A stretch of 64,000 nt of DNA from the NCBI GenBank assembly GCA_030744435.1, contig JASLQO010000009.1, forward strand, positions 254,176 through 318,175, written 5' to 3'. Under the pieces are notes generated by a model. The model saw only the letters and a list, made by a program, of their open reading frames with translations. It had not been told where the DNA came from and searched no databases. Shown here in pieces: positions 8,102-62,637 of the stretch. The translations under genes were made by a program, and so were the position numbers. Each line of letters opens with the position of its first letter. Positions within the stretch are counted from its first letter, which is position 1. Source of the stretch: Pseudomonadales bacterium. GTDB taxonomy: Bacteria > Pseudomonadota > Gammaproteobacteria > Pseudomonadales > Azotimanducaceae.

Positions 8102-8144
8102 ATGTAGGGCGGGCGTGGTCCCGGCGAAAATAGCCTCTTGAGCC

Positions 8145-8545: not shown

Positions 8546-8551
8546 GCGGGC

Positions 8552-8713
8552 ATGAGTCTGAGGGAACTTGCCCGACGAGCGGGAACCTCACACGCAACGC
8601 TCAGCGCGTACGAGAAAGGGGTCAAGACACCCTCGACCTCCACCTTCGTACGCCATGCACGGGCACAAGGCTGTCTGGATGCGGTGGCGGATTTCATGGA
8701 AAACATCGCCTGA
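8552..8713 (+). CDS. short XRE-type helix-turn-helix peptide (possibly a detached gene fragment)
   Basis: My own translation (below the track cutoff): MSLRELARRAGTSHATLSAYEKGVKTPSTSTFVRHARAQGCLDAVADFMENIA, 53 aa. Classic XRE HTH pattern. Lies head-to-head with the decayed gene at 8145..8545. Confidence 0.4.
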   Translation: MSLRELARRAGTSHATLSAYEKGVKTPSTSTFVRHARAQGCLDAVADFMENIA

Positions 8714-8813
8714 TCCGGTTCGGCGCTCCGGCAAGAGGTCTTGGTTTATCTATCTGTTGCTTCCCCTATACCGTGCTCGGCTCGCCGCGGGTGATTTGTA
8801 GGGCCCGCGTTCG

Positions 8814-9631
8814 TTACGAGGTGCCTTTGTTCTTCTCCTTTTCGAGCGCCAGTGCCACACCGCCGAGACGGCGTTGCTCGGGATCTGCATCCTTCGCACG
8901 CACGGAGCCCGCCATCTCCAGCATCATGTAGCTGGAATGCGTTGCCTGAACAGCGTTGCGGTAGCCCATGGCGTCCTGAGCGGCGTTGATGGAGTTCTTC
9001 AGCATGCGCAGGGTGAGGGCGTCGTTTTTTGCGATTCGCTGCGCCTGGGCCATGGCAGATTCCATCAGCTCTTCGCGCGGGACCACCTCACACACCAGCC
9101 CGAGTTCGAGCGCTTCCGCGGCGTGGATGAAGCGGTTCTCGTACAGGATCTGCTTCGCCTTGCGCACTCCGAGATCCCAGGGTGCGGTAAAGAGCTGGAG
9201 ATGCGCGGGTAGAAACTTTGCATCGTCCGCGGCGATGATCAGGTCCATGCATGACGCGATCAGGTAGCCACCGAAAATGCAGTACCCCTGCACCGCGGCG
9301 ATGGTGGGTTTTTGACGTCGCGCCAACGAAGGCTCGAATCGATCATCAGGTGCCATGAGCGATTGATCCGGCCGAGCGTGCCGGGACCGAAGGGCTCGGC
9401 CTCCTGATCCGCGATTTCTTCAGGGGTGCCGAGATCGTGGCCGGCGGAGAAGTGCTCACTGGCGCCGCACAGCACGACGACACGCACGGAGGTGTCGTTG
9501 TCGGCCTCGGCAAAGGCATCGTTCATTTCCTCCAGCAGTATGCGTGATTGCGCGTTGCGGTAGCGCGGCCGGTTGAGGCGAATGATGGCGATGCGGTCGT
9601 GTTTTTCGGTTTCGATCTGCTGGTAGCTCAT
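8814..9631 (-). pseudogene. enoyl-CoA hydratase/isomerase family gene with a frameshift
   Basis: N-terminal half in the frame of ORF 9260..9745, from ATG 9631 (MSYQQIETEKHDRIAIIRLNRP...FSAGHDLG). C-terminal half in ORF 8814..9356 (...RQKPTIAAVQGYCIFGGYLIASCMDLIIAADDAKF). The frames switch around 9350-9370. The span of 818 nt is not a multiple of 3. Confidence 0.7.
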
Positions 9632-9645
9632 GCGAGGTGCCCTTC

Positions 9646-9930
9646 TTATCTGTCTCTTGAATGAAAGCTTATCGTGAATCCGGTGCACTGCCACATATGC
9701 CACGTCAAGACGAGGTAGAAAGCGAGTGCGGTGGCGAAGTGCCACTCGGAGATGTTTTCCAGCCAGTCATCGTTTTCGACCAGGTTGGCGAGCGTGGCCA
9801 GAACAAGGTCCTCCAGCAGCATGAAGAGCCCGACATCGAATAGGGCCGTCGCGAGGTCGGCGAAGACGCCGTGAAAAGCGCTGATGCCGAATAAAAAGAG
9901 TGTTATCAGCCCGAGGTTCCGTGGCAACAT
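9646..9930 (-). CDS. small hypothetical membrane protein
   Basis: ORF 9646..10053 trimmed to ATG 9930 (MLPRNLGLITLFLFGISAF...) so that it does not overlap the upstream B12-domain gene. Two or three hydrophobic helices. No recognisable family. Confidence 0.4.
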   Translation of the reverse strand: MLPRNLGLITLFLFGISAFHGVFADLATALFDVGLFMLLEDLVLATLANLVENDDWLENISEWHFATALAFYLVLTWHMWQCTGFTISFHSRDR

Positions 9931-9970
9931 GAAGTCACCGCCACTGGCTTGCGGTGGTTGGAAACCGTTG

Positions 9971-10381
9971 TCACTTCGAATCGCACTTAGCCAGATCACG
10001 AATGGCATCCACAATCTCGTTTTGAGATGCCCTCGCATCGAACACGCCGTCAACTCCCTTCTCGATCATCTCCTCGGCGTCTTTGCTGGTTATGATCGAA
10101 CCTCCGATCACCACCCGGCAGTCGAGTCCTCTACTTCTGATGTCAGCGATGAGCCGAGGCACGAGCGTCAGATACTCCCAGGAGTGGCAGCTGATTCCGA
10201 CTACGTGTGCGCCCACTTTCTCGGCGTGCGCTGCAACCTGAGCGGGCGTATTGAAGACACCCATATAGCTCACGAACATCTGAGATTCCAACAGCATGCG
10301 TTGCACGGCTATCGCGCCATTTTCGTGCTGGTCTATACCCATGGTCGCGATCACGATTCTCGGTACACCCTTCATGTTCAA
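9971..10381 (-). CDS. cobalamin-binding small subunit of a divergent acyl-CoA mutase
   Basis: 136 aa. Rossmann-like B12-binding domain with the DxHxxG motif as GIDQHENG and a later GG motif (VIGGSII). The start overlaps the stop of the upstream large subunit by 4 nt. Confidence 0.85.
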   Translation of the reverse strand: MNMKGVPRIVIATMGIDQHENGAIAVQRMLLESQMFVSYMGVFNTPAQVAAHAEKVGAHVVGISCHSWEYLTLVPRLIADIRSRGLDCRVVIGGSIITSKDAEEMIEKGVDGVFDARASQNEIVDAIRDLAKCDSK

Positions 10382-38679: not shown

Positions 38680-38769
38680 CGTGCTTAGCGTACGGAGGGA
38701 GTTTGGCTTACTGTGTAGATGCATCGATACACGTCTTGTCAGTCCGTGGGGAATAGAACGGGAGAACCT

Positions 38770-40704
38770 ATGCGCAAACTGATTACCCTCGCAGCGTTGC
38801 TTGCGTGCGGCTGTTCCGACCGGGATCCGTCGAGCACCGCGGGCCAGCCTCAGACCCAGGAGCCGACCGACGTTGGTCCGCAACGATGTGACAATTTTGA
38901 TGAGACCGGTATGCCGCTGTTTGGCGATCTGCATGTGCACACCAGTTTTTCCTTCGATGCGGCGGCTAACCAGACGGGTGCCACGCCCGAGGACGCTCAA
39001 GCGTATGCGCAAGGGGAGGCAATTGCGTTTTTCCCGATCGACGACAACGGTGTGCCGACGGGCTCGGTGCGGATCGATCGGCCCCTGGACTTTCTGGGTG
39101 TTACCGATCATGGCGAGTTTCTGGGTGAGCGTGCCGTGTGTCACCGTGAAGGCTCGTTGGTGTATGAAAGTGCCTTCTGTGAGACCTATCGCGCCAACGA
39201 ACGGCAGGGTGCGCGGATGCTCGCAGGCGTGATATTCACCGAATCACCCAAACGTATTGCGCAGATATGTGGCTCCGATGGTGCGCTGTGCCGGGAGTAT
39301 GCGGCAGCCCCCTGGCGGGAGATCCAGCGAGCGGCCAATGCGGCGAATCAACCCTGCAAATTCACGAGCTTCATCGCCTACGAATACACAGGTACCCCGG
39401 GTGGTTCGAATTACCACCGCAATGTCGTGTTTCGAAACGAACTCGTGCCAAATCTGCCGGTCAGTTATATCGATGCGCCCATCGACAGCGAATTGTGGGC
39501 AGGACTCGATACGGCCTGTCCGGAAGAATCCGGGTGTGACTACCTCACCATTCCACACAATTCCAACCTGGCGAACGGGCGCATGGCCCCTTACATGAAC
39601 CTTGAGCGGAACGACGAAAACAAGCGCGCGTATGCTGAGAGGAGACTGCGTCGCGAACCCATCATGGAAATCTTCCAGCACAAGGGGAACTCGGAGTGTG
39701 TCAACGGTCTGTCGAGTATTCTGGGTGCACCGGATGAACTCTGCGATATCGAGTCCGTGCGCCGGATGGGAGAAGAAAAAACCTACCTGACCAGCGGGTC
39801 GGAGGGTCTTTCCGGCAACACCTCGTTGCAGACGACGCGTGAATGCCGGCTGGGTGAAGTCGGGACGTACGGCATGCTTGGCGCAGGATGCATACACCCC
39901 ACCGACTTTCAACGCTCCGGTCTTCTGGTCGGACTTGAGGAAGAACAACGGGTCGGTCTGAATCCGGTGAAACTCGGCATCATCGCGTCTACCGACACGC
40001 ATACGGCGACGCCGGGCGGTGTGTCGGAACAGGATTGGGGAGGTGCGGTTACCGGAGAGGCGACACCGACAGAGAGATTGCAACCCGGCATTCTGACCAG
40101 CGGGATCGATGGCAATCCCGGAGGGCTCGCAGGGGTGTGGGCGAAAGAAAACACCCGCGATGCAATATTTGACGCGATACTGAGACGTGAGGTGTTCGGC
40201 ACATCCGGTCCACGCATCGTGCCGAGATTGTTCGCCGGATGGGCGTTGCCCGATCGCTTGTGTGATGATCCTGAACGTGATGCGACGGCGTACGCACAGG
40301 GCGTGCCGATGGGTTCTGATCTGATCAGGGCCGCAAACGGTGACAAACCCAGGCTGTTGGCGTATGCCGCGAAGGATCCCGCGGGGCGAAACCTCCAGGC
40401 GTTGCATCTGATCAAGGGCTGGGTTGGTGGTGACGGGAGCCTGAACACTGCCGTGTTGCCGATCGTAGAATCTGAGGAAGGTGCAGCGACGCTATGCGCG
40501 CTCTACACGGACGAAGATTTCGACCCGGCGCAGTCCGCATACTATTACCTGCGCGTGGTGGAGCCACCCACGAAGCGCTGGCACACCTACGATTGTGCCC
40601 GAACCGCGGAGGCTGAACGCCCGGAGGTGTGTAGCAATGGAGCATACCCAGAGATGATCCGGGAGATGGCCTGGACCTCACCGATATGGTACCGGGGGGG
40701 CTGA
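38770..40704 (+). CDS. DUF3604 domain protein with a lipoprotein-type signal
   Basis: ATG 38770 behind a GGAGAA RBS. MRKLITLAALLACGCSD signal, FGDLHVHTSFSFDA metal-site motif and a C-terminal MAWTSPIWY. Confidence 0.85.
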   Translation: MRKLITLAALLACGCSDRDPSSTAGQPQTQEPTDVGPQRCDNFDETGMPLFGDLHVHTSFSFDAAANQTGATPEDAQAYAQGEAIAFFPIDDNGVPTGSVRIDRPLDFLGVTDHGEFLGERAVCHREGSLVYESAFCETYRANERQGARMLAGVIFTESPKRIAQICGSDGALCREYAAAPWREIQRAANAANQPCKFTSFIAYEYTGTPGGSNYHRNVVFRNELVPNLPVSYIDAPIDSELWAGLDTACPEESGCDYLTIPHNSNLANGRMAPYMNLERNDENKRAYAERRLRREPIMEIFQHKGNSECVNGLSSILGAPDELCDIESVRRMGEEKTYLTSGSEGLSGNTSLQTTRECRLGEVGTYGMLGAGCIHPTDFQRSGLLVGLEEEQRVGLNPVKLGIIASTDTHTATPGGVSEQDWGGAVTGEATPTERLQPGILTSGIDGNPGGLAGVWAKENTRDAIFDAILRREVFGTSGPRIVPRLFAGWALPDRLCDDPERDATAYAQGVPMGSDLIRAANGDKPRLLAYAAKDPAGRNLQALHLIKGWVGGDGSLNTAVLPIVESEEGAATLCALYTDEDFDPAQSAYYYLRVVEPPTKRWHTYDCARTAEAERPEVCSNGAYPEMIREMAWTSPIWYRGG

Positions 40705-47220: not shown

Positions 47221-48270
47221 TCAGAGCCCCGGATTGACCACGAGGCGCACCACGTCGGTGTCCTTGCTGGCAAGCCTTGCCAGGGCGTCGTTGATCCCAG
47301 CGAGCGCATAGCGACCCGAAACTGAGCGGTCGAGATTCAATCGTCCGCCGGCGACGAGCGCGAAGAGATCCTCGATATCGCGCTTGTCCATACCGAATGA
47401 ACCCGCGACTGAATGTTCACGGCCGACAAAGCTGACCAGCGGCGGCAGCTGTACGCGGGCAGCTCCGACCCCCACCACGATCACCCGTCCGCCGGTGTCG
47501 AGCGTGTTCACCGCGATGTCCACCGTTTCCGCCCGCCCCACGAATTCCAGGGCGAGATCGACACCACGTCCGAGCCGCTGGCGAATGTACTTACCCACCC
47601 TTGGTTCGGCGGCCGGGTCGATTGCAAGATCGGCACCGAGTTCCAGCGCGCGGTCCCTGGCCTGTTCTTGAGTATCGATTGCGACGATGAATCCCGCTCC
47701 CATCATTCGCGCCAGCATAACTGCATGCGTACCCAACCCTCCGCAGCCGACGACGGCCACTGATTCGCCGGCGCTGAGCCTGCCCCGCGATCGCAGCGCG
47801 TGAAAGGGCGTGGAGACACCGTCGGTAATGATGGCGGCGATCTCGGACGGTACGGATTCCGGAATTGGAATGAGCGACCATGAAGGTGCGGCGACGTACT
47901 GCGCCAGTGAGCCGTCCTGGGCCATGCCGTAGACCCTCGCGTTTTCGCAGAGCGATTCATGCCCCGCCATGCAGAATCGGCAGCGGCCGCAAGTCGCGGA
48001 CGGGAATAGCGCAACGCGATCTCCGGTCGAGAACTCGGTCACCGAATCACCGACACTCGCCACGGTTCCTGCAGCTTCATGGCCCAGGGTGATGGGTGTG
48101 TGTTGCACGGGAATGTCGCCATCCACTGCCAGATGTATGTCCGTGCCGCACAGACCACAGGCCTCTACCTGCACCACTACCTCGTGAGGCTCGGGTTGCG
48201 GGATCGGGACCGATTCGATTGTCAGCGGTTCTCCCGGAACATGCAGGCGTGCGGCTTTCATGATCGTCAT
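47221..48270 (-). CDS. zinc-dependent alcohol dehydrogenase (MDR family)
   Basis: ATG 48270 forms an ATGA overlap with the TetR stop. CGLCGTDIH, GHEAAGTV, CGRCRFC, GCGGLG. Confidence 0.9.
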   Translation of the reverse strand: MTIMKAARLHVPGEPLTIESVPIPQPEPHEVVVQVEACGLCGTDIHLAVDGDIPVQHTPITLGHEAAGTVASVGDSVTEFSTGDRVALFPSATCGRCRFCMAGHESLCENARVYGMAQDGSLAQYVAAPSWSLIPIPESVPSEIAAIITDGVSTPFHALRSRGRLSAGESVAVVGCGGLGTHAVMLARMMGAGFIVAIDTQEQARDRALELGADLAIDPAAEPRVGKYIRQRLGRGVDLALEFVGRAETVDIAVNTLDTGGRVIVVGVGAARVQLPPLVSFVGREHSVAGSFGMDKRDIEDLFALVAGGRLNLDRSVSGRYALAGINDALARLASKDTDVVRLVVNPGL

Positions 48271-48905
48271 GGTCGGTCTCGGTTGTCGAATTCGGACAGG
48301 AATCCTCGCTTCAGGAACTGGAAAGCGGCGGTGCGGTCCTTCAGACCGGTGCGGATGTCTTCGTGACCGAGGTTTACCCTCGAGCCACGCAATATCATCA
48401 GGCCGAGGAACGTGGACCACAGCGTGTCCGCCATGTGCTGGCCGTCCGAGCGACCAGTGATGTCCTCGAGCAGCTTGGCCAAACGCTGGAAGTTCGCACC
48501 GGAGCTTTCGGTAATCTGTTCCTTGATTTCGGGCGATACGCCCTGGAGTGTGTTGGGCTGAGCGAGGTAGGCGGAAACCACATAGTATTCGGGGTGCTCG
48601 TCGTTGACCTTCTCGTGGAAGCGCCAGATCTGCTCCAGACGTTTCCCAGTGGACTGCCTGGATCGCTCGAGTCTTTGGAAACCATCTGCCCAGAAACGGA
48701 TACTCTCAAACAGCAGCGATAGGAGGATTTCGTCCTTGTTTTTGAAATAGAAGAACAGGGTAGCCTCGGAGAGTTCGCACAGTTCAGCGATCTCTTTTGT
48801 GGTCGTGCCGCGGAATCCTTTTTCGAGTAGCAACCGACGTGCCGCATCCAGTACCGCTTCTTTTCGTGCCTGGCGTTCCCTTTCGCGTCGCTCGGCTACG
48901 CCCAT
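48267..48905 (-). CDS. TetR family transcriptional regulator
   Basis: HTH GFRGTTTKEIAELCELSEATLFFYFKNKDEIL. 212 aa. Confidence 0.9.
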   Translation of the reverse strand: MGVAERRERERQARKEAVLDAARRLLLEKGFRGTTTKEIAELCELSEATLFFYFKNKDEILLSLLFESIRFWADGFQRLERSRQSTGKRLEQIWRFHEKVNDEHPEYYVVSAYLAQPNTLQGVSPEIKEQITESSGANFQRLAKLLEDITGRSDGQHMADTLWSTFLGLMILRGSRVNLGHEDIRTGLKDRTAAFQFLKRGFLSEFDNRDRP

Positions 48906-50111: not shown

Positions 50112-50873
50112 TTAGTGCTGTTTTGCGAAGAACGCGGCAACGCGTTCGCGGTGGGCTTCGCTTTGCAGGCACTGGACCTGAGCGAAGATTTCGTAATCGA
50201 ATTCGTTTTCCATGTCGCGGTCCAGGGAGCGGCGAATGGCGTTCTTGGTGAACGCCAGCGCCCTGGCAGGACCCGTCACGAAGCTGCCGGCGAGTTGCAT
50301 GACTGTCTCGTCCAGTTTCGCTTCGGGTACCAGTCTGGACAGGAGTCCCATCTCATGTGCTTCCTCGGCGGCAACGAATCTCGCCGTCATCATCATGTCC
50401 GTGGCCCGACCCAGGCCGACCAGGCGAGGCAAAAAGTACCCGCACGACATGTCGCAACCAGCGAGCCCTATATTCACGAACGGTGCGCAATAGCGAGAGC
50501 CCGCGGCACCTACTCTGAAATCACAGGCCAGAGCAAGCCCCAGACCACCCCCCACGACGTCGCCGTGACATCTGGCAATGACGGGTTTTTCCATGTTCGC
50601 GATGAGGCGCACGGGATCCAGATAATGGTCGACGATCTGTTCCCAGTCGGCTGGCGTGCGGTCGATCATCTGTCCGATGTCGGCACCGGCGCAGAACACG
50701 CGTCCCGCACCGGCCAGCACGAGCGCACCGGTTTCGTCGTCTTTCCCGGCAGCTTCGAGCGCTTCGATGAGTGCATCGAGCATCTCGATGTCGATGGCGT
50801 TCAGGCGATCCGGACGATTGAGCGTTATCGTGAGCACGCCGTCAGTGCGATCCGTTTTCAGTTTGTCCGTCAT
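50112..50873 (-). CDS. enoyl-CoA hydratase/isomerase family protein
   Basis: VLTITLNRPDRLNAI...VFCAGADI crotonase signature. Confidence 0.9.
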   Translation of the reverse strand: MTDKLKTDRTDGVLTITLNRPDRLNAIDIEMLDALIEALEAAGKDDETGALVLAGAGRVFCAGADIGQMIDRTPADWEQIVDHYLDPVRLIANMEKPVIARCHGDVVGGGLGLALACDFRVGAAGSRYCAPFVNIGLAGCDMSCGYFLPRLVGLGRATDMMMTARFVAAEEAHEMGLLSRLVPEAKLDETVMQLAGSFVTGPARALAFTKNAIRRSLDRDMENEFDYEIFAQVQCLQSEAHRERVAAFFAKQH

Positions 50874-50900: not shown

Positions 50901-51755
50901 CTAGACGGTGAGCCTCAGCGCCCGGACCACGTTATCCCGCACTAGCTTTCGGTACACCTCGTCGCTCACACCTAGGTCTTCCAGTTCAGTCAGTGTGCGG
51001 TCGAACGCGAGCAGGGGGTAGTCGGTGGCCCAGATGACCTTGTCCTGTCCCCAGCCGGTGGCGAAATCCACCAGTGACTGGGGCCACTGGCGGGGGCCCC
51101 GCGCGGATGTCTCGAGGTATACGTTTGGGTGTTTCCACGCGAAGATCATCATCTCCTCGTGCCAGGGCTGGCCTACGTGGCAGCCGAGGATAACCAGCTC
51201 CGGGAAGGCCAGCGCCACCTCGTCCAGATAGATCGGGCGGCCGCATTCGGAAGGCAGTAAAGGCCCGGTGTGGCCGACCTGCAGGGCGACGGCGACGCCG
51301 AGTTCCACGCACTTCATGTAGACCGGCCAGTAGTGTTTGTCGTTTGGCGGCAGTCCGGTCATGCCATCGCCATTCATGTACGGTTCCAGCCGGATACAGA
51401 CCATGCCGAGTTCGTTGACCAGGTAGGAGACGTCGCGGGCGACATCCATCGGTTTTTGCATGACGTTCACGGCCCCCGCGCCGATAAAGCGGTCCGGGTG
51501 CTGCTTGACGTACTGAGCCACCTCCTCGTTGGTGAGAACCCAGTCGCCCCTGTAGTGGAAGGAAGAGAGTATCAGCCGGTCCACGCCCGCGGTGTCCATC
51601 TCTTCGAGCAGTGCCTCGATCGACTGCCCTTCCATCATTACGGCGGGAGACCGGTACTTTCTGAATATGTGCTTGAATTCGTCCGGCCAGCGGGTGGCAC
51701 CCTTGGGAGTGATGTGGGTCGCCCATGCGTCTATGGCGATTTTGGGTCGTGTCAT
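50901..51755 (-). CDS. amidohydrolase-2 (PF04909-like) family protein
   Basis: IAIDAWATHI..., GVDRLILSS, VALQVGHTG, VILGCHVGQPW, WATDYP: TIM-barrel metal-hydrolase/decarboxylase pattern. Confidence 0.8.
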   Translation of the reverse strand: MTRPKIAIDAWATHITPKGATRWPDEFKHIFRKYRSPAVMMEGQSIEALLEEMDTAGVDRLILSSFHYRGDWVLTNEEVAQYVKQHPDRFIGAGAVNVMQKPMDVARDVSYLVNELGMVCIRLEPYMNGDGMTGLPPNDKHYWPVYMKCVELGVAVALQVGHTGPLLPSECGRPIYLDEVALAFPELVILGCHVGQPWHEEMMIFAWKHPNVYLETSARGPRQWPQSLVDFATGWGQDKVIWATDYPLLAFDRTLTELEDLGVSDEVYRKLVRDNVVRALRLTV

Positions 51756-51803: not shown

Positions 51804-52595
51804 TTAGCGGCCATGAAACACCGGCGTCCTCTTCTCGACAAAGGCCTGTACGCCTTCCTGCGCATCCTCACTGACGCGCAGTGGTTCGGCATGAAACTGC
51901 TCCAGGCGCAGGGCCTCGTCCAAATCTAGATGGCGGCCCTGGTAGACGGCGTCGCGCGCTGCCCGGACGGCCAGCGGACCGTTCGCTGCAATGAGTTCGG
52001 CTACGCGCAGCGCCTCAGTGAGCAGGTTGTTCAGTTCGGTTATCCTGCTGACGAGTCCCCAGCGCAACGCCGCCTCGGCATCAATGGGTGCCCCGGTCAG
52101 GATCATCTCGAGTGCGACGCCCAAGGGCAGCGCGCGCGGCAGCCTTTGCGTGCCGCCGGCGCCGGGGAGGATACCTCGTTTGACCTCGGGCAATCCAAAC
52201 ACGGCGTGCTTCGCGGCGATTCGGATGTCGCAGGCCAGAGCGAGTTCAAGACCGCCCGCCAGACAGGGACCGTTGATGGCCGCGATCACCGGTTTGCGCG
52301 GGTCGAAATTCCTGGTCAGCGCCCCGAGCCCCGGGGTGCGTTCGCCGTTCTCACGCCGCTCGACGGGGGTCATCGAGCGGTAGTAGTCACCCATTTCCTT
52401 CAAATCGGCGCCGGCACAAAACGACTGGTCACCGGCTCCGGTCAATACAGCGACGCGCGCCGTATCCGAGTCCCGATATTCGTTCCATACATCGAGCAGG
52501 GCTTCGCGCATCTCGGTATTCAGTGCATTGCGTGCCTCGGGGCGATCCAGCGTCACGATCAGGACCTGTCCGCGCAATTCCGTTCGAACGCTCAC
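51804..52595 (-). CDS. enoyl-CoA hydratase/isomerase family protein
   Basis: VLIVTLDRPEARNAL...SFCAGADL crotonase signature. 4-nt overlap with the upstream ACAD. Confidence 0.9.
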   Translation of the reverse strand: MSVRTELRGQVLIVTLDRPEARNALNTEMREALLDVWNEYRDSDTARVAVLTGAGDQSFCAGADLKEMGDYYRSMTPVERRENGERTPGLGALTRNFDPRKPVIAAINGPCLAGGLELALACDIRIAAKHAVFGLPEVKRGILPGAGGTQRLPRALPLGVALEMILTGAPIDAEAALRWGLVSRITELNNLLTEALRVAELIAANGPLAVRAARDAVYQGRHLDLDEALRLEQFHAEPLRVSEDAQEGVQAFVEKRTPVFHGR

Positions 52596-53743
52596 TGTCC
52601 GCGAGCCACCAGGTCTTCACTGCGGGCGATGATGCCGCGCATTGTCTCACTGGTTCCGGCGCCGATGGTGAGAGCGAGCGAATCGCGATACAGGCGTCCA
52701 ATCAGACACTCATCCATATGGCTGAGCCCGCCCTGGATCTGGGCGCATTCCCGAGCGGTATCCAGCGCCATCTCAGTGGCAAACAGCTTCGACATGGAGA
52801 TCAGGGAGTTAGCGTCTTCTCCCCTCGTGTACTTGTCTATGGCCTGAATCATGAGGGCTTCAGCGGCTTCGATGTTGGTCAGGACATCCGCGAGCCGGTG
52901 TTGCCAGACCTGAAATCCAAGTAGTGGTTGGCCGAAGGCCTGTCGGTCGTGACCCCATCTGCGCGCTTCCTCGAAGAGCATGCGGGCCTGCGAGCAGGCC
53001 ATGACGGAAAGCACCAGCCGCTCGCCCTCGAATCCACCCATGATGAGGCCGAAGCCCCTGTTCTCTTCGCCGACGAGATTGCTCGCTGGTACGCGAACGT
53101 CATCGAAGAAGATCTCGGCCGTGTCGGAGGCGTGCGTGCCGATCTTCTGCAGCCGCCGGCGTGTAAGCCCCTCGCTGTCGGCCGGGACGACGATGAGTGA
53201 GATGCCGCGATGTCCCTCTCCGCCCGTGCGCACCGCCGTGGTGATGTAGTCGGCGATGGTGCCGTTGCTGATGTAGAGTTTCGATCCGTTGATGACGTAA
53301 TCGCTACCGTCTCGAACCGCCCGGGTCTTGAGTGCGGCGACATCGCTGCCGGCATCCGGTTCCGAGACGCCGAGTGCTCCGATCAGTTTTCCTTCCGCCG
53401 CCGGGCGGACGTATTTTTCCTTTAGCGCGCTCGAACCGCCCCGGTCAATGACCTTGGTGGCGAATTCGGCGTGCGCCATGATGGCGACGGCGACACCGAT
53501 GGAACCGCTTTTCATCAGTTCCTGAAGCAGCACGGCAGTGAACCAGAAATCCTGGCCGCCGCCACCAAACTCCGGCGAAAGGCGCACACCCAGGTAGCCG
53601 AGCTCGGCAAGTTTGCTGAACAGGCTGCGGGGAACTTCCCCGTCGCGCTCCCATTGAAGGGCGTTGGGCTTCACCTCGCGTTCCACCAGATCGGCGACTG
53701 CATGGCGCATCATCTCGTGTTCTTCAGATAGTACCGGCTGCAT
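52592..53743 (-). CDS. acyl-CoA dehydrogenase
   Basis: 383 aa. VSEPDAGSDV, YISNGTIAD, TIGAGTSETMRGIIAR. AGGAGA RBS. Confidence 0.9.
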   Translation of the reverse strand: MQPVLSEEHEMMRHAVADLVEREVKPNALQWERDGEVPRSLFSKLAELGYLGVRLSPEFGGGGQDFWFTAVLLQELMKSGSIGVAVAIMAHAEFATKVIDRGGSSALKEKYVRPAAEGKLIGALGVSEPDAGSDVAALKTRAVRDGSDYVINGSKLYISNGTIADYITTAVRTGGEGHRGISLIVVPADSEGLTRRRLQKIGTHASDTAEIFFDDVRVPASNLVGEENRGFGLIMGGFEGERLVLSVMACSQARMLFEEARRWGHDRQAFGQPLLGFQVWQHRLADVLTNIEAAEALMIQAIDKYTRGEDANSLISMSKLFATEMALDTARECAQIQGGLSHMDECLIGRLYRDSLALTIGAGTSETMRGIIARSEDLVARGQ

Positions 53744-53775: not shown

Positions 53776-53824
53776 TTATTAGACTGACACTCGAATGTCA
53801 AGTGACACTCAGTAAAACTGAAAT
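53776..53824. repeat. copy 1 of a roughly 48-bp intergenic element (promoter/operator-like)
   Basis: TTATTAGACTGACACTCGAATGTCAAGTGACACTCAGTAAAACTGAAAT. Shares an identical 17-mer CACTCGAATGTCAAGTG (53788-53804) with copy 2. On the gene (minus) strand it contains TTGACA followed 15 nt later by AATAAT, about 30 nt upstream of the ACAD start. Confidence 0.6.
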
Positions 53825-54809
53825 GGTGGCGTCAGAGCCTGATGTCTCGATGCCGAGAGTCTGTTCGATATTGCCGACCAGCGTCGTGGGTACCGATGCT
53901 CCGCCACCGCCGATGGTCTTCAGGGAACCGAGATTTCGCATGCTGAACTCGGGATGCTCCATCATGGTGATGAGTACGGTGGGAACGCGGCCCATGACGG
54001 TGCTACGCTCGCGCTCACACATATCGAGCACCAGGCCCGGTTCGAATACCTCTGGCAGGATCAGCGTCGCGGAGTTGGTGAGTGCACCGAGGACGGCGAC
54101 CACGCATCCCGCGGCGTGAAACAGTGGCAGGGGTTCAGGAAGGCGCCACCCGGCTGCAAACAGAGGCTTATGCCGATGAACCGGCCATTGTTGGTTACCC
54201 CGCGGTGATGCAGCCGTGCCCCCTTGGGAGCACCGGTGGTTTCGGAGGTGTATTGAATCAAAGCCGTATCCGTGAGGGTTACCTCCGGTAGGGCCCGAGT
54301 CTACGAGCCGCTGGTGTAGAACATCTCCCAGTCGTCGAAAGAGATGGCATGGCGCAAAGTCGAATTCGTGCGTATCGCATCGTCTACCCAGTCCGCCAGC
54401 GGGTTGTTTCTGTACTTGGGTACGAAGAAGATGCCCGTCGCCTGCGATTGGTGTAGCGCTTACCCCAGTTCGGGGCGCTAGTAGGCCGGATTCAGGAGCA
54501 CCAGCACCATACCGGCCATGCCCACGGCGAGCTGGACGATCACCCATTCGGGTAGGTTGGGTGCCCGGAGCGCAATGTGTTCGCCAGGCTCAAATCGCGT
54601 GAGCAGCGCGTTTGCGCAGTGGCCTGCCTGTGAATACATCTCGGCGAAGGTCCAGCGCCGGTGGGCTCGCCGAAAGTGTCACCAGCCACGAGTCCGGTCC
54701 AGCCGGGATGATCCATGGCCGCCTGGCGCAGTATGCTGGCGACAGTCGAATCGTGCACTGGCTGGGATGTATCGGCCGGATAGTACGACCTGGTGAGGGG
54801 TGCGCTCAT
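53798..54809 (-). pseudogene. decayed AMP-dependent acyl-CoA synthetase gene
   Basis: N-terminus MSAPLTRSYYPADTSQPVHDSTVASILRQAA (from 54809). After a frameshift near 54680: RRWTFAEMYSQAGHCANALLTRFEPGEHIAL...NPAY*RPELG*ALHQSQATGIFFV...YTSGS*...IQYTSETTGAPKGA. After another frameshift: LPLFHAAGCVVAVLGAL...GGGGASVP. In-frame TAG, TAA and TAG codons are present, and the whole C-terminal domain is missing. Confidence 0.8.
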
Positions 54810-55685: not shown

Positions 55686-55732
55686 TTATTAGCTTCACTC
55701 GAATGTCAAGTGTTACTCAGGAATATTGAAAT
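55686..55732. repeat. copy 2 of the roughly 48-bp intergenic element
   Basis: TTATTAGCTTCACTCGAATGTCAAGTGTTACTCAGGAATATTGAAAT. Identical 17-mer at 55696-55712. Lies 60-100 nt upstream of the crotonase start at 55629 and downstream of the ACAD stop at 55789. Confidence 0.6.
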
Positions 55733-56975: not shown

Positions 56976-57003
56976 TTGCATCCGGGAGAACCAAAGCTAT
57001 AAT
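56976..57003 (+). promoter_or_regulatory. sigma70-like promoter for the esterase operon
   Basis: TTGCAT (56976-56981), 16-nt spacer, perfect TATAAT (56998-57003). About 45 nt upstream of ATG 57048. Confidence 0.45.
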
Positions 57004-57047: not shown

Positions 57048-58649
57048 ATGAGGGTGCTGTGCTTACTGCTGGGTTTGATTGCCTCGCCGGCACTCCTGGC
57101 GATGAGCGTGCCCGATGCGCGTTGTGTCGAACTCGCTGATGTGGTGGTCGATTCGGTTGGCGCGCTGAGCACAAAGCCGGTTCGTCAGTCGGATTCGCAG
57201 CCATCGCAGTGGCCGCGCGACGAAGTGGGTGCGACGGTCGTCCCAGTTCCGGACTATTGCCGGGTGCGGGGAACACTACGGCCAGCCATCGGATTCGAGG
57301 TCCGGTTACCACTCGAGAACTGGAACGGAAAGTTCTACATGGCGGGCTGCGGTGGGTTCTGCGGAGAGGTACTTCCGGATCGGTCCGGATATTCCAACGC
57401 CATAAACGTCGCCCTCGCCAGAGGCTATGCGGTGGTGACGTCCGACGCGGGGCACTGGGGAGAGAGTCGAGTGGATGCGTTCTGGGCATATCAGAATCGT
57501 TGCGCAGAAATCGATTGGGCGCACCGGAGCATTCCCGCAGTGACCCACGCGGCGCGCAAAATCGTCGCTCGGTTTTATGGATCACCGCCTGTGCGTTCCT
57601 ACTTTTCGGGCTGCTCGAACGGCGGCCGCATGGGCGCCATTGCCATGCAGCGCTACCCCGAGCTATTCGACGGGGTGATCATCGGCGCGCCTGCGCTCGA
57701 CTGGAGAACCCTGTCGCTGTATTCCGTCGCCGTCACGGCGGCCAATACCGATGCGCAGGGCCGGTACATACTCGATCACAAGAAACTCGCGGTACTGCAC
57801 GACGCGGTTGTGCAGGAGTGCGACGCGCGCGATGGTCTCACAGACGGTCTGATCGCCGACCCGCGACAGTGCAGGTTCGATGCGCGAACGCTCCTGTGCT
57901 CCGTAGGCGAGAATGAAGGTGCTTGTCTGACCCGCGAAGAAGTTCAGACCGTAGAGGGCTGGTATGCGGGATTGCAGAACGGCCACGGCGTGGACTGGCC
58001 GTTTCGAATGCCCCAGGGATCGGAACCATACTGGCGGCGCTGGTATGCACCGGCGCCGGGTCAGCAAGGTGCCGGTTATCTGTTTTCTGACGGGCTGATC
58101 CGCTACATCATGTACGAGCGTGACCCGGGCCCCGAATTCAGCCCCCTGGATGTCGACTTGGATGTGTATCCCCGGCAGATGGAAACCATGCGCCAGCTGG
58201 TACGCGCGGATGCCACGGATCTCGGCCGGTTCAGAGATCGGGGTGGTAAGGCAATCCTTTATCAGGGTTACGCGGATCCGGCAGCCATCCCCGAGATGAC
58301 CATCGGCTACTATGAGGACGTGCTCGAGACGATGGGCGGTCAGCGAGCCGTGGATGAGTTCCTGCGCCTGTTCATGATTCCCGGAGCCGGACACTGTTTC
58401 GAACCACCGCGCAACATCCCCGATCACTTCGACCCGCTGGCTGCGCTGGAACGCTGGGTGGAACGAGATATCGAACCGCGGCAAATGATCGCCGCGCAGT
58501 GGGACGCCAGCGGTGAGGTGGTCCGGTCCCGTCCGCTGTGCAGCTATCCCGGCGTTGCACGCTACCGGGGCAGAGGTAATGTCGACGAAGCAGGCAGCTT
58601 CGTGTGCGTCGCGCCCGACACTGGGGCTGATGGAGAGACGAACGAATGA
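57048..58649 (+). CDS. tannase/feruloyl-esterase family alpha/beta hydrolase, secreted
   Basis: Signal peptide MRVLCLLLGLIASPALLAMS. NGKFYMAGCGGFCG, nucleophile context FSGCSNGGRMG, C-terminal IPGAGHC. Confidence 0.85.
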   Translation: MRVLCLLLGLIASPALLAMSVPDARCVELADVVVDSVGALSTKPVRQSDSQPSQWPRDEVGATVVPVPDYCRVRGTLRPAIGFEVRLPLENWNGKFYMAGCGGFCGEVLPDRSGYSNAINVALARGYAVVTSDAGHWGESRVDAFWAYQNRCAEIDWAHRSIPAVTHAARKIVARFYGSPPVRSYFSGCSNGGRMGAIAMQRYPELFDGVIIGAPALDWRTLSLYSVAVTAANTDAQGRYILDHKKLAVLHDAVVQECDARDGLTDGLIADPRQCRFDARTLLCSVGENEGACLTREEVQTVEGWYAGLQNGHGVDWPFRMPQGSEPYWRRWYAPAPGQQGAGYLFSDGLIRYIMYERDPGPEFSPLDVDLDVYPRQMETMRQLVRADATDLGRFRDRGGKAILYQGYADPAAIPEMTIGYYEDVLETMGGQRAVDEFLRLFMIPGAGHCFEPPRNIPDHFDPLAALERWVERDIEPRQMIAAQWDASGEVVRSRPLCSYPGVARYRGRGNVDEAGSFVCVAPDTGADGETNE

Positions 58650-59779
58650 CACGCAAGGCGGTGATCGGTGGCATCGGCCACACGGAGTTTGGGCGATTTC
58701 CAGAGCGCACGGCATTCGACCTCGAGGTGGAAGCTGCCAGACGCGCGGTGGAAGATGCAGGGCTCAGGCCGGATGAAGTCGATGGGCTGATCACGGATCC
58801 CGGCCCGGCGCAGGGTATTCTCGACGGCATCACGCCGCACTATCTGGCGCTCGGTCAATACCTCGGTATCGATCCGGCGTATGCGGGATCCGACATTCTC
58901 GGCGGCGCCAGCAGCGCCGCCATCGTGCAGCGCGCGGTACTCGCGGTCGAGGCGGGTCTGTGTTCGGTCTGCCTGTGCGTGTACGGCGACTCGGCGCTTT
59001 CTTCACCGGGTTCTTTCGGCTATGGCCGCGGGGACGATGCGGCGTTCGGGCTGTTCGGCGCGGTTGGCCTGCATGCGCTAGCGGCTCGCCGTCACATGCA
59101 CCGCTGGGGCACCACCAGCGGGCAACTGGCCGAAGTCGCCATCGCCGCGCGGGCGCACGCCATGCGCACCCCGCACGCGCAGAAGAGGCAGCCGCTCACA
59201 CTCAAGCAGTACCAGGCCGCCGATTCGATCGTCGAACCCCTCAATCGTCACGATTGCTGTCTGGTGTCGGATGGCGCCGCTGCCGTACTGGTGGTTTCTT
59301 CCGACCGGGCTGCGGACCTTCGTCACATGCCGACACGAATTCTCGGGCATGGACAGGCTAGCAGCCTGTCGACCTGGTCTTCGCCCGGGCATTTCGACAC
59401 CCTGCCCGCGGCCCGGTGCGGTCCGGAGGCCTTCGCGCGAGCGGGTGTGAGCACTGCCGACGTGGATGTCGCAATGCTCTATGACTGTTTCACGATCGTG
59501 GTGTTGATGCAGCTCGAAGATTACGGTTTCTGCGAAAGGGGAGAGGCCGGCGCATTCGTCGCGGAAGGCCGCATTGGTCCGGGCGGGAGTTTTCCGGTCA
59601 ATCCCAGTGGTGGACTGTTGGCGGAAGGGTACGGCGGCGGGATGATGCATATCATCGAAGCGGTGCGGCAGCTGCGTGGGATCGCGGGTGAACGGCAGCT
59701 CGACGCACCTGAGATAGCGTTGGTTACGGGCCACGGATTGGGTATGAATACGCATTCGACCCTGATCCTCGCAGCTTGA
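58646..59779 (+). CDS. thiolase-fold (SCP-x/lipid-transfer type) protein, apparently lacking the nucleophilic Cys
   Basis: AVIGGIGHTEFGR..., NPSGGLLAEG. The expected C(A/G)(S/T)G nucleophile position reads LGGASSAA. ATGA overlap with the esterase gene. Confidence 0.8.
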   Translation: MTRKAVIGGIGHTEFGRFPERTAFDLEVEAARRAVEDAGLRPDEVDGLITDPGPAQGILDGITPHYLALGQYLGIDPAYAGSDILGGASSAAIVQRAVLAVEAGLCSVCLCVYGDSALSSPGSFGYGRGDDAAFGLFGAVGLHALAARRHMHRWGTTSGQLAEVAIAARAHAMRTPHAQKRQPLTLKQYQAADSIVEPLNRHDCCLVSDGAAAVLVVSSDRAADLRHMPTRILGHGQASSLSTWSSPGHFDTLPAARCGPEAFARAGVSTADVDVAMLYDCFTIVVLMQLEDYGFCERGEAGAFVAEGRIGPGGSFPVNPSGGLLAEGYGGGMMHIIEAVRQLRGIAGERQLDAPEIALVTGHGLGMNTHSTLILAA

Positions 59780-59789
59780 GGGAGAGACC

Positions 59790-60242
59790 ATGAGCGCCAC
59801 AGGGAGCGAAGCATATCCGTTACCCCAGCCAACAACGTTCACCCGACCATTCTGGGAGGCTTGTCAGAATCGGCAGCTGGGAGTTGCCGTCTGCCGGAAT
59901 TGCGGGCACCGGTTCATGCCCGGGGCACCGAACTGCCCGCAATGCTGGTCGGGCGATCCGGACTTCCAGTCCGTGTCCGGCAGGGGCGAGGTAGTCAGCT
60001 TCGCGGTCTACCGTCGCACCTATCATCCAGCCATTCCTGCACCCTATGTCGTGGCGCTAGTTCAGCTGGAAGAGGGGCCAAGGATGATATCCAATATCGT
60101 CGAATGTGCGCCTGAAGCCGTTGCCATAGGCATACGTGTGGAAGTCTGTTTTCAATCAGAAGCCGGTTTCCTGTTACCGCGATTCGTACCTGTCGGTACG
60201 GGTAGCACCGATCCATCAATCAGCTCCCCCGCGAGGACGTGA
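59790..60242 (+). CDS. DUF35 OB-fold/zinc-ribbon protein
   Basis: FWEACQNRQLGVAVCRNCGHRFMPGAPNCPQC zinc ribbon followed by an OB-fold segment. The usual partner of SCP-x-type thiolase-like proteins. Confidence 0.85.
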   Translation: MSATGSEAYPLPQPTTFTRPFWEACQNRQLGVAVCRNCGHRFMPGAPNCPQCWSGDPDFQSVSGRGEVVSFAVYRRTYHPAIPAPYVVALVQLEEGPRMISNIVECAPEAVAIGIRVEVCFQSEAGFLLPRFVPVGTGSTDPSISSPART

Positions 60243-61087
60243 AAATGACTGACCGCCCGAAAACACAGCGCCGCAGACACATTGGTCAATACATGGCCTC
60301 CGGGGAATGGGGAGATTATTGGAGCACCGGTATAAGCCGTGCCCAGGGCGGCAAGATCCTGGTGCGAGGTTACCCCGTCGAGGAACTGATCGAACGCTTG
60401 AGCTACACCGAGTCGGCGTTTCTCATTCTGCGCGGAGAGCTCCCGGATGAGCGTGAGACGGCTCTGTTCGATCTAGTACTGCGCAGCGGCATGGATCAGC
60501 AGTTCATCAGCGCGGCGGTCGGTGCGGCGCGCTTCACAGCATCGGCGTTCCCGGACTCCGTCGTCCCGGCGCTGGCGAGCGGCATGCTGGCGACGGGTTC
60601 GGTTACCGGCTCACCGCAGGAGCCAGCCGAGATGCTGATCGAGGCCGCCGCGTGGGATCTGGACGTGGAGCAGGCGAGTGCACGCGCGGTCGATCTCTGG
60701 CTGGAGCGGCGTGCCGCCGTTCCCGGACTGGGTCACCCGTTGCACAAGGAGGCGGAACCCAGAGCTGTTACCGTGCGTCGTCTTGCGATGCAGCGAGACG
60801 GATGGCGCGGCCATGGCTGCTTGCTGGACGCCATCGAAAGCGAACTCGAAGATCGCAAAGGACGCCACATCCCGATCAATCTCGCCGGCGCTCTCGGTGC
60901 TATCCTCGCGGACCTGGAGTTCGACCCGTTGATCATAGGCGGTATGGGCGCATTGAATTATGGGATGGCTCTGCTTGCGCACATAACGGAGGAGATTCGC
61001 GAGGGCGTGCCGTTGCGTATCATCCCGGACGAACTCGGCGCTCACTATACTGGTCCTGCCGAGCGCCATATGGGTGAAGACTCATGA
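60239..61087 (+). CDS. citrate-synthase-fold, citryl-CoA-lyase-like protein (divergent)
   Basis: ILVRGYPVEELIERLSYTESAFLILRGELPDE, VPGLGHPLHK (GH..YK-type motif). The HGGA-type motif position reads GSVTGSPQE. GTGA overlap upstream and ATGA overlap downstream. Confidence 0.65.
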   Translation: MKMTDRPKTQRRRHIGQYMASGEWGDYWSTGISRAQGGKILVRGYPVEELIERLSYTESAFLILRGELPDERETALFDLVLRSGMDQQFISAAVGAARFTASAFPDSVVPALASGMLATGSVTGSPQEPAEMLIEAAAWDLDVEQASARAVDLWLERRAAVPGLGHPLHKEAEPRAVTVRRLAMQRDGWRGHGCLLDAIESELEDRKGRHIPINLAGALGAILADLEFDPLIIGGMGALNYGMALLAHITEEIREGVPLRIIPDELGAHYTGPAERHMGEDS

Positions 61088-62637
61088 TTCATCCCTACTC
61101 TCATTATCCTGCGCGGGCGGCGCGGCACTGGCCGGATCACATCGCTCTGGTGGATGGGGATGAGACCCGAACCTACGCCGAACTGGATGTGAGGGCCAGC
61201 GGCATAGCCCTGTCTCTTCAAAACGCCGGTCTCGAAGTGGGGGAGCGGGTCGCGGTGCTGCAACACAATTGCATTGCTTATGTCGAGTCGGTCATTGGCA
61301 TCGCCAGAGCCGGCGGCGTACTCGTGCCGCTGCTCGGGGCGCTGACACCCCGAGAGCACAGCTACATTCTGGCTGATTCCGGTGCCCGTTTTGCCATCGC
61401 GCTGACGTCGGCGGGAGTGGCGGCGCTGCGTTCTGCGTCCGACGAAGGGTTGACGCTTCTGGCATTCGCAGGGGGCGAGGGCGTCATCGATCTCTCGCCT
61501 AAGGAAGCGCCACAGGGTTCGTTGACGCTCGTCGACCGGCCACCGTCGCAGATTGCCCAGATCCTCTACACATCAGGCACTACCGGTCAACCGAAAGGTG
61601 TTACCCACAGCTATGCCAGTGTGTCGGCAGCAATGAATTTCTGGGCCCAGAAATTCGACCTCGGTACGGAGGACCGTCTTCTCGGACAGCTGGCGCTGAG
61701 TCACTTCTGCGGTAGGGCAATGGACAGCTGCTGGGTAGCCGGTGCCCGTCTGGTCATACTTCCCGAGGCGGATCCGGCCGCCATTCTGGAGACCATCGAC
61801 GAGCAGAACATCACCATGATGTTGGTTGTGCCGACGCTGTTGCGCATGCTGCTCGATCACGAGGACGCCGTAAAAAGGGATCTCGGCAGTTTGAGGGCGG
61901 TCGTATATGCCGCTTCACCTGCGGCTCCGTCCCTGGTTGAACGTGCCTGCGATCGTCTCGGGGAGGTCTTGTACACCGGATTCGGGCAGACCGAGGCGTA
62001 CGGCCTCAATACCTTTATGGGCCCCCGGGAACACCAGCAGGCGCTTACCGAGGGCGGGCATCGTCTGACATCCGTGGGCCGGGAGTGCGCGGTCGCGCAG
62101 GTGCGTATCCGCTCCGAAGACGGTGAGGATGTCGCCACTGGTGAAGTTGGAGAAATCTGGGTCTCGGCACCGTGGGCCACGCCGGGATTCTGGCAGCGTC
62201 CGGACCTGGACGAACAGCGTCTGACAAACGGCTGGCTGCGGACGGGTGATCTGGGTCGCATGGACGAAAGTGGGTACATCTACCTTGCAGATCGGCGCGA
62301 AGACATGATCATTACCGGTGGTTTCAATGTCTATCCTGCGGAGATCGAGAATTGCCTGGTGGCGCACCCGGCGGTTGTTGAGTGCGGGGCCTTCTCCGTG
62401 CCGGACGCAAAATGGGGTGAAGCGGTGAATGCCTCGGTGGTGCTGCGTGAAGGGATGTTGGTCGGTGAGGAAGAGTTGCTGGCGTTCGCGAAGGCGAATC
62501 TCGCCCGATTCAAGGTGCCTAAGTCGATTCACGTGATGGAGGAACTTCCGAAAACGGCGGTCGGTAAAATTCTGCGTCGTTCGTTGCGGGCGCCATTCTG
62601 GGAAGGACAGATGCGGGATGTGCACGGGGTTCAGTAG
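61084..62637 (+). CDS. AMP-dependent acyl-CoA synthetase/ligase
   Basis: YTSGTTGQPKGV, GFGQTE, TGDLGRMDESGYIYLADRRED, PKTAVGKILR. Confidence 0.9.
   Translation: MIHPYSHYPARAARHWPDHIALVDGDETRTYAELDVRASGIALSLQNAGLEVGERVAVLQHNCIAYVESVIGIARAGGVLVPLLGALTPREHSYILADSGARFAIALTSAGVAALRSASDEGLTLLAFAGGEGVIDLSPKEAPQGSLTLVDRPPSQIAQILYTSGTTGQPKGVTHSYASVSAAMNFWAQKFDLGTEDRLLGQLALSHFCGRAMDSCWVAGARLVILPEADPAAILETIDEQNITMMLVVPTLLRMLLDHEDAVKRDLGSLRAVVYAASPAAPSLVERACDRLGEVLYTGFGQTEAYGLNTFMGPREHQQALTEGGHRLTSVGRECAVAQVRIRSEDGEDVATGEVGEIWVSAPWATPGFWQRPDLDEQRLTNGWLRTGDLGRMDESGYIYLADRREDMIITGGFNVYPAEIENCLVAHPAVVECGAFSVPDAKWGEAVNASVVLREGMLVGEEELLAFAKANLARFKVPKSIHVMEELPKTAVGKILRRSLRAPFWEGQMRDVHGVQ

Follow-up and report, generated by a model that had tools for sequence, protein, structure and literature searches.

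The 64,000-nucleotide stretch of Pseudomonadales DNA analysed here, referred to below as the window, contains five tightly packed genes that encode a tannase-family esterase (EST), a thiolase-like protein (THL), a stand-alone DUF35 protein, a short citrate-synthase-fold protein (CSL) and an acyl-CoA ligase (LIG). We argue that these genes probably belong to a horizontally spread catabolic cluster with a retro-aldolase at its core, to which the esterase is an accessory. The five genes are:

57048-58649, plus strand: EST, 533 amino acids; Pfam Tannase PF07519, 4.8e-111, 372 bits against a 29.8-bit cut-off
58646-59779, plus strand: THL, SCP2-thiolase fold, 377 amino acids; Pfam Thiolase_C_1, 9.6e-50
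59790-60242, plus strand: DUF35, stand-alone, 150 amino acids; Pfam OB_ChsH2_C and zf-ChsH2 (zinc ribbon and OB fold)
60239-61087, plus strand: CSL, short citrate-synthase-fold protein, 282 amino acids; Pfam Citrate_synt, 3.5e-17
61084-62637, plus strand: LIG, AMP-forming acyl-CoA ligase, 517 amino acids; AMP-binding 262 bits and AMP-binding_C 71 bits

The open reading frames, Pfam families and junctions of the original prediction, which had described five coupled genes of these families, were all confirmed, the junctions by direct reading. EST overlaps THL in an ATGA, as does CSL with LIG, while DUF35 and CSL share a GTGA, and THL and DUF35 are separated by a 10-nucleotide gap with GGGAGAG ahead of the ATG. 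The overlaps and the short gap bear out the view of one tightly coupled unit. No terminator-like or promoter-like excess was found inside the unit, and we infer that its genes are co-transcribed. For CSL, an alternative ATG lies at 60245, 3 nucleotides past the DUF35 stop, and the spacing is tight with either start. One public gene call begins at an ATG 18 codons further on (window 60239-60295), which yields a protein of 264 amino acids; since the orthologues align from residues 2-12, the longer form starting at 60239 or 60245 is likelier. Curated NCBIfam cut-offs are reached by none of the five proteins, nor by any of 14 cluster proteins scanned, which marks the five as divergent members of their families and provides no clue to the substrate.

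Active sites of THL and CSL

The nearest solved structures for THL are 4u4e (1.4e-73), Ltp2 (6ok1, 1e-56), Sal (9myr, 3e-48) and BbsB (4e-29), with Ltp2 and Sal ranking above both the true thiolases and BbsB. The position of the thiolase nucleophile is occupied by alanine (A88) in 40 of 41 THL orthologues, and this absence of a nucleophilic cysteine excludes thiolysis. All 41 orthologues carry the motif YDCF and not HDCF, the mark of true SCP2 thiolases (PMC12329534); in retro-aldol cleavage, the base and the acid catalyst come from the corresponding YDHF in Ltp2 and YDCY in Sal (PMC12329534). In addition, Y329 of THL is found at the position of Ltp2 Tyr344, and is a tyrosine in 40 of the 41 orthologues. 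Based on these residues, THL is predicted to be a 3-hydroxyacyl-CoA retro-aldolase of the Ltp2/Sal type. The DUF35 protein fits this assignment in that its best solved relatives are aldolase partners, namely the DUF35 domains of ChsH2 (2.7e-20) and Shy (4.4e-17), and its zinc-ribbon cysteines C35, C38, C49 and C52 are invariant in 39 orthologues.

As in Ltp2-ChsH2 from Thermomonospora curvata and Sal-Shy from Comamonas testosteroni, the window thus encodes an SCP2-thiolase fold devoid of the nucleophilic cysteine, with the motif tyrosine of YDxF/Y, the YDC cysteine of Sal and the tyrosine of Ltp2, accompanied by an obligate partner of the DUF35 family that has a C4 zinc ribbon, and preceded in the pathway by an acyl-CoA dehydrogenase and a hydratase. 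The systems also differ. DUF35 in the window is a protein of its own rather than fused to a MaoC domain, the hydratases are crotonases and not MaoC-type, the sequence identity is modest, and a citrate-synthase-fold protein and a ligase are part of the operon.

The original prediction had named two precedents for the thiolase-like/DUF35 pair, the Ltp2-type aldolases and BbsAB. The structure matches and the YDCF motif agree with the former, and the missing nucleophile disqualifies the latter. The benzoylsuccinyl-CoA thiolase BbsAB (7pxp) likewise pairs a thiolase-like protein with DUF35 in a CoA-dependent, beta-oxidation-like route, but the similarity is much weaker (4e-29 for BbsB, 7e-4 for BbsA), the NCBIfam equivalog scores for BbsA/BbsB are 104 bits (cut-off 750) and 34 bits (cut-off 250), and the BbsAB reaction is the thiolysis that is ruled out for THL. 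A third relative in terms of gene content is the archaeal thiolase/DUF35/HMG-CoA synthase complex (6esq), also encoded by an operon of a thiolase fold, a DUF35 protein and a fold of the Claisen-condensing type. By analogy, this likeness suggests a DUF35-scaffolded multi-enzyme complex in the present system, although here the third partner has a citrate-synthase fold rather than an HMG-CoA synthase fold and is devoid of enolising residues, THL has no cysteine, and the context is catabolic.

That third partner, CSL, matches the citryl-CoA lyase Ccl of Hydrogenobacter thermophilus (6hxp) over its full length (9e-30), and has the same short citrate-synthase-fold layout throughout. The active site is nevertheless different. 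In the alignment to 6hxp, with the catalytic residues His274, His320 and Asp375 numbered as in pig citrate synthase, His274 is replaced by Thr123, Asp375 by Ala216 and Arg401 by Tyr241, and all three substitutions are invariant in 51 orthologues. CSL therefore lacks two of the three catalytic residues of the citrate synthase family as well as the oxaloacetate-binding arginine. Retained, and again invariant in the 51 orthologues, are His166 in the GH motif (equivalent to His320) and Arg175 in the EPR motif (equivalent to Arg329). The best citryl-CoA lyase match in NCBIfam, NF004869, scores 164 bits against a 212-bit cut-off, and unlike in the case of Ccl, there is no citryl-CoA synthetase gene next to CSL. 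The Claisen-type cleavage originally assigned to a citrate-synthase-fold lyase, or canonical citryl-CoA lyase chemistry in general, is thereby unlikely.

Clustering of a protein library at 50% identity reduces the CSL orthologue group to two representatives, and its nearest relatives are 40-44% identical; these share the threonine and keep the aspartate. Of about 130 full-length representatives of short citrate-synthase-fold proteins, no more than 21 have the canonical His/His/Asp/Arg set, from which it follows that many "citryl-CoA lyase" annotations are probably wrong. CSL is an obligate member of the cluster, yet a non-canonical one without the residues for enolising acetyl-CoA. It would thus not be a citryl-CoA lyase, but either an enzyme with a new activity or a non-catalytic partner.

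The conserved cluster and its proposed pathway

The operon is accompanied in the window by a divergent set of genes:

47221-48420, minus strand: ADH, Zn-dependent alcohol dehydrogenase family; Pfam ADH_N and ADH_zinc_N; longest open reading frame, true start probably near 48260 because the orthologues have about 348 amino acids
48267-48905, minus strand: TetR-family regulator; Pfam TetR_N 2.2e-15; 74% identity in locus L056
48945-50087, minus strand: ACADa, acyl-CoA dehydrogenase; Pfam ACAD N, M and C domains
50112-50873, minus strand: ECHa, crotonase family; Pfam ECH_1 1e-50
50901-51755, minus strand: AMH2, amidohydrolase-2 family; Pfam Amidohydro_2 7.6e-35; nearest solved structure the uncharacterised BB4693
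51804-52595, minus strand: ECHb, crotonase closest to EchA19-type hydratases; Pfam ECH_1 6.2e-64; 281 bits to NCBIfam EchA19, under the 400-bit cut-off
52592-53743, minus strand: ACADb, acyl-CoA dehydrogenase (Pfam); directly divergent from THL in canonical clusters

A CSL pattern search in contigs from one genome per species retrieved 50 loci, which were analysed by tblastn and clustering of open reading frames, with orthologues defined by an identity of at least 45%. Counted by locus, orthologues were obtained for CSL (51), LIG (45), THL (41), ECHb (40), ACADb (40), DUF35 (39), ECHa (35), ACADa (31), AMH2 (29), ADH (27) and TetR (20). In the typical arrangement, ADH, TetR, ACADa, ECHa, AMH2, ECHb and ACADb lie on one strand and diverge from THL, DUF35, in some cases ECHb, CSL and LIG on the other. 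THL-DUF35-(ECHb)-CSL-LIG recurs together with ACADb, ECHb, AMH2, ECHa, ACADa, TetR and ADH in about 40-45 of the 50 loci, at 60-86% identity. The synteny proposed as a check on the five genes is thus upheld for the last four, which are co-conserved with the acyl-CoA dehydrogenase/crotonase arm, and fails for the esterase, which is found in none of the 50 loci.

This conservation bears directly on the view that the five genes form a self-contained route, in which the acid released by the esterase is activated by the operon ligase and then subjected to Claisen-type cleavage by the citrate-synthase-fold lyase with the thiolase/DUF35 pair. The tight coupling and the family assignments fit such a route, the tannase family typically releases aromatic acids (as reflected in the MHETase and FaeB structure matches), and feruloyl-CoA synthetase is among the enzymes that LIG resembles. 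We nevertheless give it little credence. It ignores the dehydrogenase and crotonase genes co-conserved with the four CoA genes, which the route needs. The five genes include no hydratase or dehydrogenase that could produce a cleavable beta-hydroxy or beta-oxo group, and the model has to accommodate a CSL deprived of the equivalents of His274, Asp375 and Arg401, a THL without nucleophile, and the absence of the esterase elsewhere.

The taxonomic labels of the loci comprise Gamma-, Alpha- and Betaproteobacteria, Myxococcota/"Deltaproteobacteria", Acidimicrobiia, Spirochaetes, one planctomycete bin and Chloroflexi (55-58% identity). Among relatives the cluster is rare: it is present in one of 24 genomes of the same family (G014), in exact canonical order and without the esterase, while a class-wide sample of 399 genomes, usable as a measure of rarity only, contains no CSL orthologue. 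CSL nevertheless has matches at E<=1e-60 in no fewer than 499 protein clusters (90% identity), nearly all of them from metagenomes or metagenome-assembled genomes (MAGs) of marine, sediment, wastewater and bioreactor samples and from many phyla, and their public names are limited to "citrate synthase" or "hypothetical". In a tree of THL and CSL the phyla are intermixed, and CSL is 79% identical to the copy of an Acidimicrobiia-labelled MAG compared with 73-74% to that of the same-family genome. From these two observations we infer horizontal spread. A literature search found no paper describing the cluster, in line with the initial impression that the combination is not a described pathway.

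Two of the loci, L037 ("Betaproteobacteria PRO1") and L042 ("planctomycete PLA2"), have identical tblastn coordinates and identities and are hardly separated in the tree. They probably represent one organism binned twice or a mis-binned contig, which calls for caution regarding transfer between phyla.

With these genes in place, we read the region as a horizontally spread, TetR-controlled catabolic cluster for a carboxylic acid, composed of an aldolase core and an accessory esterase, and estimate the probability of this reading, based on sequence comparison, at about 0.68. LIG would convert the acid to its CoA thioester, after which the divergently encoded acyl-CoA dehydrogenase and then a crotonase would lead from acyl-CoA via enoyl-CoA to 3-hydroxyacyl-CoA. 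Retro-aldol cleavage by THL-DUF35 would yield a short acyl-CoA, probably acetyl-CoA, and an aldehyde or ketone. The second dehydrogenase/crotonase pair, ADH and AMH2 would presumably perform a further round, or process a ring or branch. The exported esterase, which in this genome and a few metagenomic relatives was inserted directly ahead of THL together with a promoter-like site, would liberate the acid from an ester in the periplasm.

The ligase itself is generic; its matches among solved structures include FadD8, feruloyl-CoA synthetase (8wev, 1.7e-75) and FadD13, it scores 424 bits to NCBIfam PRK06187, under the cut-off, and reaches no equivalog cut-off. The chemistry of the core is more informative. 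Ltp2-ChsH2 and Sal-Shy cut steroid side chains by a retro-aldol reaction, a route that serves where the beta-carbon is branched, cyclic or bulky. Neither a 3-hydroxyacyl-CoA dehydrogenase of the usual families nor a cysteine-bearing thiolase is found within the island, which together with the retro-aldol logic favours a beta-branched or alicyclic acid. Our best guess for the substrate is therefore a beta-substituted (branched or alicyclic) acid, with an arylpropanoid acid as a possible alternative. Degradation of the steroid nucleus (9,10-seco route) was considered because of the steroid-like aldolase/DUF35 pair and rejected, as no KshA_C match exists in the genome, which is 98% complete.

A more far-reaching proposal would make CSL a new functional type, either a CoA-ester enzyme or, by analogy with the archaeal complex, a non-catalytic subunit of a DUF35-scaffolded complex of aldolase, citrate-synthase fold and ligase. 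The 11-gene cluster would then encode a so far undescribed pathway, transferred widely, for a natural acid that is abundant and possibly esterified, beta-branched or alicyclic, with TonB-dependent uptake in some lineages. We regard this proposal as possible but doubtful.

The esterase and the window-specific insert

EST contains the GCSNGG motif and an N-terminal signal-like peptide (MRVLCLLLGLIASPALLA). The triad S190/D410/H449 and the cysteine pair C189/C450 are invariant in 60 homologues and align with the MHETase residues, and signal-like peptides are present in all 60, so that the assignment as a secreted serine hydrolase of the tannase/MHETase family stands. The nearest solved structures are MHETase (8e-56, 193 bits) and FaeB (6e-47, 164 bits). 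With MHETase of Ideonella sakaiensis and the fungal FaeB-type enzymes EST shares the Pfam Tannase domain, the Ser-Asp-His triad, the Cys-Cys pair and export, but the similarity is distant, and EST is located in a CoA-dependent cluster of aliphatic type rather than in an aromatic-acid cluster. The terephthalate-binding residues Arg411 and Phe415 of MHETase correspond to Gln and Tyr in EST, according to a HMMER alignment to 8ekg that is gapped in this stretch and gives this correspondence moderate confidence.

EST is the only tannase-family gene of this genome. Orthologues are absent from all 50 species-representative CSL loci, from the cluster in G014 and from 40 related genomes, where the best match is 39% identical. 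A search of 5.8 billion protein clusters gave no more than three proteins with at least 68% identity to EST (68-74%). The genes of all three (loci L056, L058 and L059) are part of this cluster, and they occupy at least two different positions in it. In L058, EST, THL, DUF35, CSL and LIG follow each other as in the window, with the same 4-nucleotide EST/THL overlap, and diverge from ECHup (an accessory crotonase, see below), the gene of an exported 401-residue protein, ACADb and ECHb. L056 has a full canonical cluster followed by EST, a second ligase gene (LIG2) and, on the opposite strand, ECHup. In L059, ECHup diverges from an acyl-CoA dehydrogenase gene and EST. The esterase had been linked to CoA-dependent carbon-carbon chemistry in the original prediction, and with three of three close homologues in the same cluster this linkage is no accident of one genome.

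More distant homologues point in the same direction. At 50-58% identity, six of six esterase genes adjoin a TonB-dependent receptor gene, with a varying assortment of acyl-CoA dehydrogenase, thiolase-like, DUF35, MaoC, ligase, CoA-transferase, penicillin-amidase or DUF3604 genes nearby. In L061 (esterase of about 55% identity), orthologues of TetR, ACADa, ECHa and ACADb (57-76%) occur with EST, a LIG2-like gene and a crotonase gene in series, and the THL/CSL arm is not found within 10 kb. That the linkage outlasts rearrangement speaks for a functional connection. In the THL and CSL tree, the esterase-bearing clusters (window, L058 and L056) belong to one subclade, in which they are interleaved with esterase-free clusters, namely L006 (ECHup directly ahead of THL, on the opposite strand), G014 and several alphaproteobacterial bins. 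This interleaving implies either that EST was gained and then repeatedly lost, or that it was inserted more than once. We read EST as a rare, recurrent accessory, a putative periplasmic front end that would free the acid from an esterified substrate.

In the window, EST belongs to an insert of about 4.9 kb that separates ACADb from THL. Besides EST it contains:

53798-54809, minus strand: psi-LIG2, decayed second acyl-CoA ligase; Pfam AMP-binding fragment, located by tblastn with LIG2 of L056
54832-55698, minus strand: ECHup, accessory crotonase (EchA15-like); Pfam ECH_1; longest open reading frame, orthologues of 265 amino acids
55789-57027, minus strand: ACADup, extra acyl-CoA dehydrogenase; Pfam ACAD domains from residue 31, likely true start 56958

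The remains of LIG2 comprise three tblastn pieces in differing frames that cover residues 1-322 of 532; the C-terminal 210 residues are absent. Intact LIG2 genes with 66-75% identity are found beside the cluster or beside the esterase in L006, L018, L020, L025, L028, L043 and L056, and the orientation of psi-LIG2 relative to ECHup is inverted in comparison with L006 and L056. The original proposal that the operon ligase activates the acid released by the esterase is weakened accordingly, as the esterase normally travels with LIG2. ECHup is most similar to EchA15 among solved structures (3e-50), is present in 13 of the 50 CSL loci, and has orthologues at 84-87% identity that adjoin the esterase in L056, L058 and L059. 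ACADup has no orthologue above 41% identity in any related locus and is specific to the version of the cluster in this genome. The slot of psi-LIG2 is taken in L058 (2935-4140, minus strand) by the 401-residue protein mentioned above, which has a signal-like N-terminus, a lipase-like AHSQG motif and no Pfam match.

The company of EST, LIG2 and ECHup raises the question of a hydroxycinnamate-ester module, in which the roles of feruloyl esterase, feruloyl-CoA synthetase and hydratase/lyase would fall to these three, the remaining enzymes would handle dihydro- or phenylpropanoid acids, and the aldolase would produce an aryl aldehyde and acetyl-CoA. The succession of esterase, LIG2 and crotonase genes in L061 and L056 is what such a module would look like, feruloyl and chlorogenate esterases are members of the tannase family, the public names of EST homologues are mostly "feruloyl esterase", and ADH could use aryl alcohols or aldehydes. 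These names are automatic, however, and the closest structures to ECHup are EchA15 and plain hydratases. The island also has no genes for a vanillin or other aldehyde dehydrogenase, a demethylase or ring cleavage, and its two or three acyl-CoA dehydrogenases and four or more crotonases exceed what a C3 side chain requires. We consider this module unlikely. A role of ECHup as hydroxycinnamoyl-CoA hydratase-lyase was rejected, since that enzyme is not among its 60 best solved relatives.

The insert is also of interest with respect to regulation, and three sites were located:

53788-53804, no strand assigned: operator-like palindrome CACTCGAATGTCAAGTG, copy 1, exact match upstream of ACADb
55696-55712, no strand assigned: operator-like palindrome CACTCGAATGTCAAGTG, copy 2, exact match upstream of ECHup
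56976-57003, plus strand: promoter-like TTGCAT-N16-TATAAT ahead of EST, common to L058; failed a stricter hexamer rule

The palindrome CACTYGAWTGTCAAGTG (arms CACTYGA and TCAAGTG) is found between ACADb and THL in L027 (6357-6373), L028 (6342-6358) and L056 (5688-5704). The window contains exactly two copies, and 3 matches occurred in none of 100 shuffles; the palindrome is probably the TetR operator. At the esterase operon, the promoter GGTTGCAT-N16-CTATAAT, shared with L058, is associated only with the half-site-like ACACTCAAAT. The full palindromes at ACADb and ECHup and the half-site at the esterase operon suggest that the insertion parted the THL arm from its ancestral operator.

Such an arrangement could also result if EST were a functionally unrelated passenger that landed in the divergent promoter region with ACADup, ECHup and psi-LIG2 and reads through into the CoA operon. 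The insert does split an otherwise canonical cluster and carries a pseudogene and a genome-specific dehydrogenase, EST is missing from the 40 related genomes, and it has a promoter-like site of its own without full operator. However, members of the same esterase clade occupy the cluster in two further orders (after LIG in L056, and in L059), a homologue at 55% identity lies beside related acyl-CoA dehydrogenase/crotonase/TetR cassettes (L061), the 4-nucleotide overlap with THL is kept in L058, and the triad is intact. A mere passenger is for these reasons very improbable.

Several points weigh against the reading as a catabolic cluster with an aldolase core and an accessory esterase. The absence of EST from 50 of 50 loci shows that it is dispensable for the core pathway, and its usual ligase partner, LIG2, is decayed in the window, which may point to a declining and not a recently incorporated esterase module. 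Because the operon promoter has no full operator, the esterase arm may be regulated differently from the rest. The cluster holds no aldehyde dehydrogenase to carry the aldehyde product onward, and the MAG labels behind the transfer between phyla may include binning errors.

On this catabolic reading, the cluster joins two enzymes with misleading annotations, an "acetyl-CoA acetyltransferase" incapable of thiolysis and a "citrate synthase" without the catalytic base. Knowledge of the substrate would fill a recurrent piece of environmental carbon turnover and reveal what else the citrate-synthase fold is used for. The esterase-bearing variants, that of the window among them, offer the best access to the substrate and suggest that an ester form of it exists as well, which is imported, or else processed in the periplasm.

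Variable slots and flanking genes

The slot of AMH2 between the two crotonase genes is variable. Most versions of the cluster have the amidohydrolase-2 gene there, but it is occupied by a BKACE (beta-keto acid cleavage enzyme) gene in L061 (4523-5398), and by a DUF4442 hot-dog gene in L056 (2992-3426). This variation hints at a step on a beta-keto intermediate. The last genes at the downstream end of the island encode a luciferase-like monooxygenase and, next, a class-I aminoacyl-tRNA synthetase. An intact gene for an exported DUF3604 protein is located near the island (window 38719-40704, plus strand), and in L064 a DUF3604 gene (7939-9972) has a TonB receptor gene directly on one side and the gene of an esterase homologue directly on the other. 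DUF3604 may represent a further accessory periplasmic enzyme of the system.

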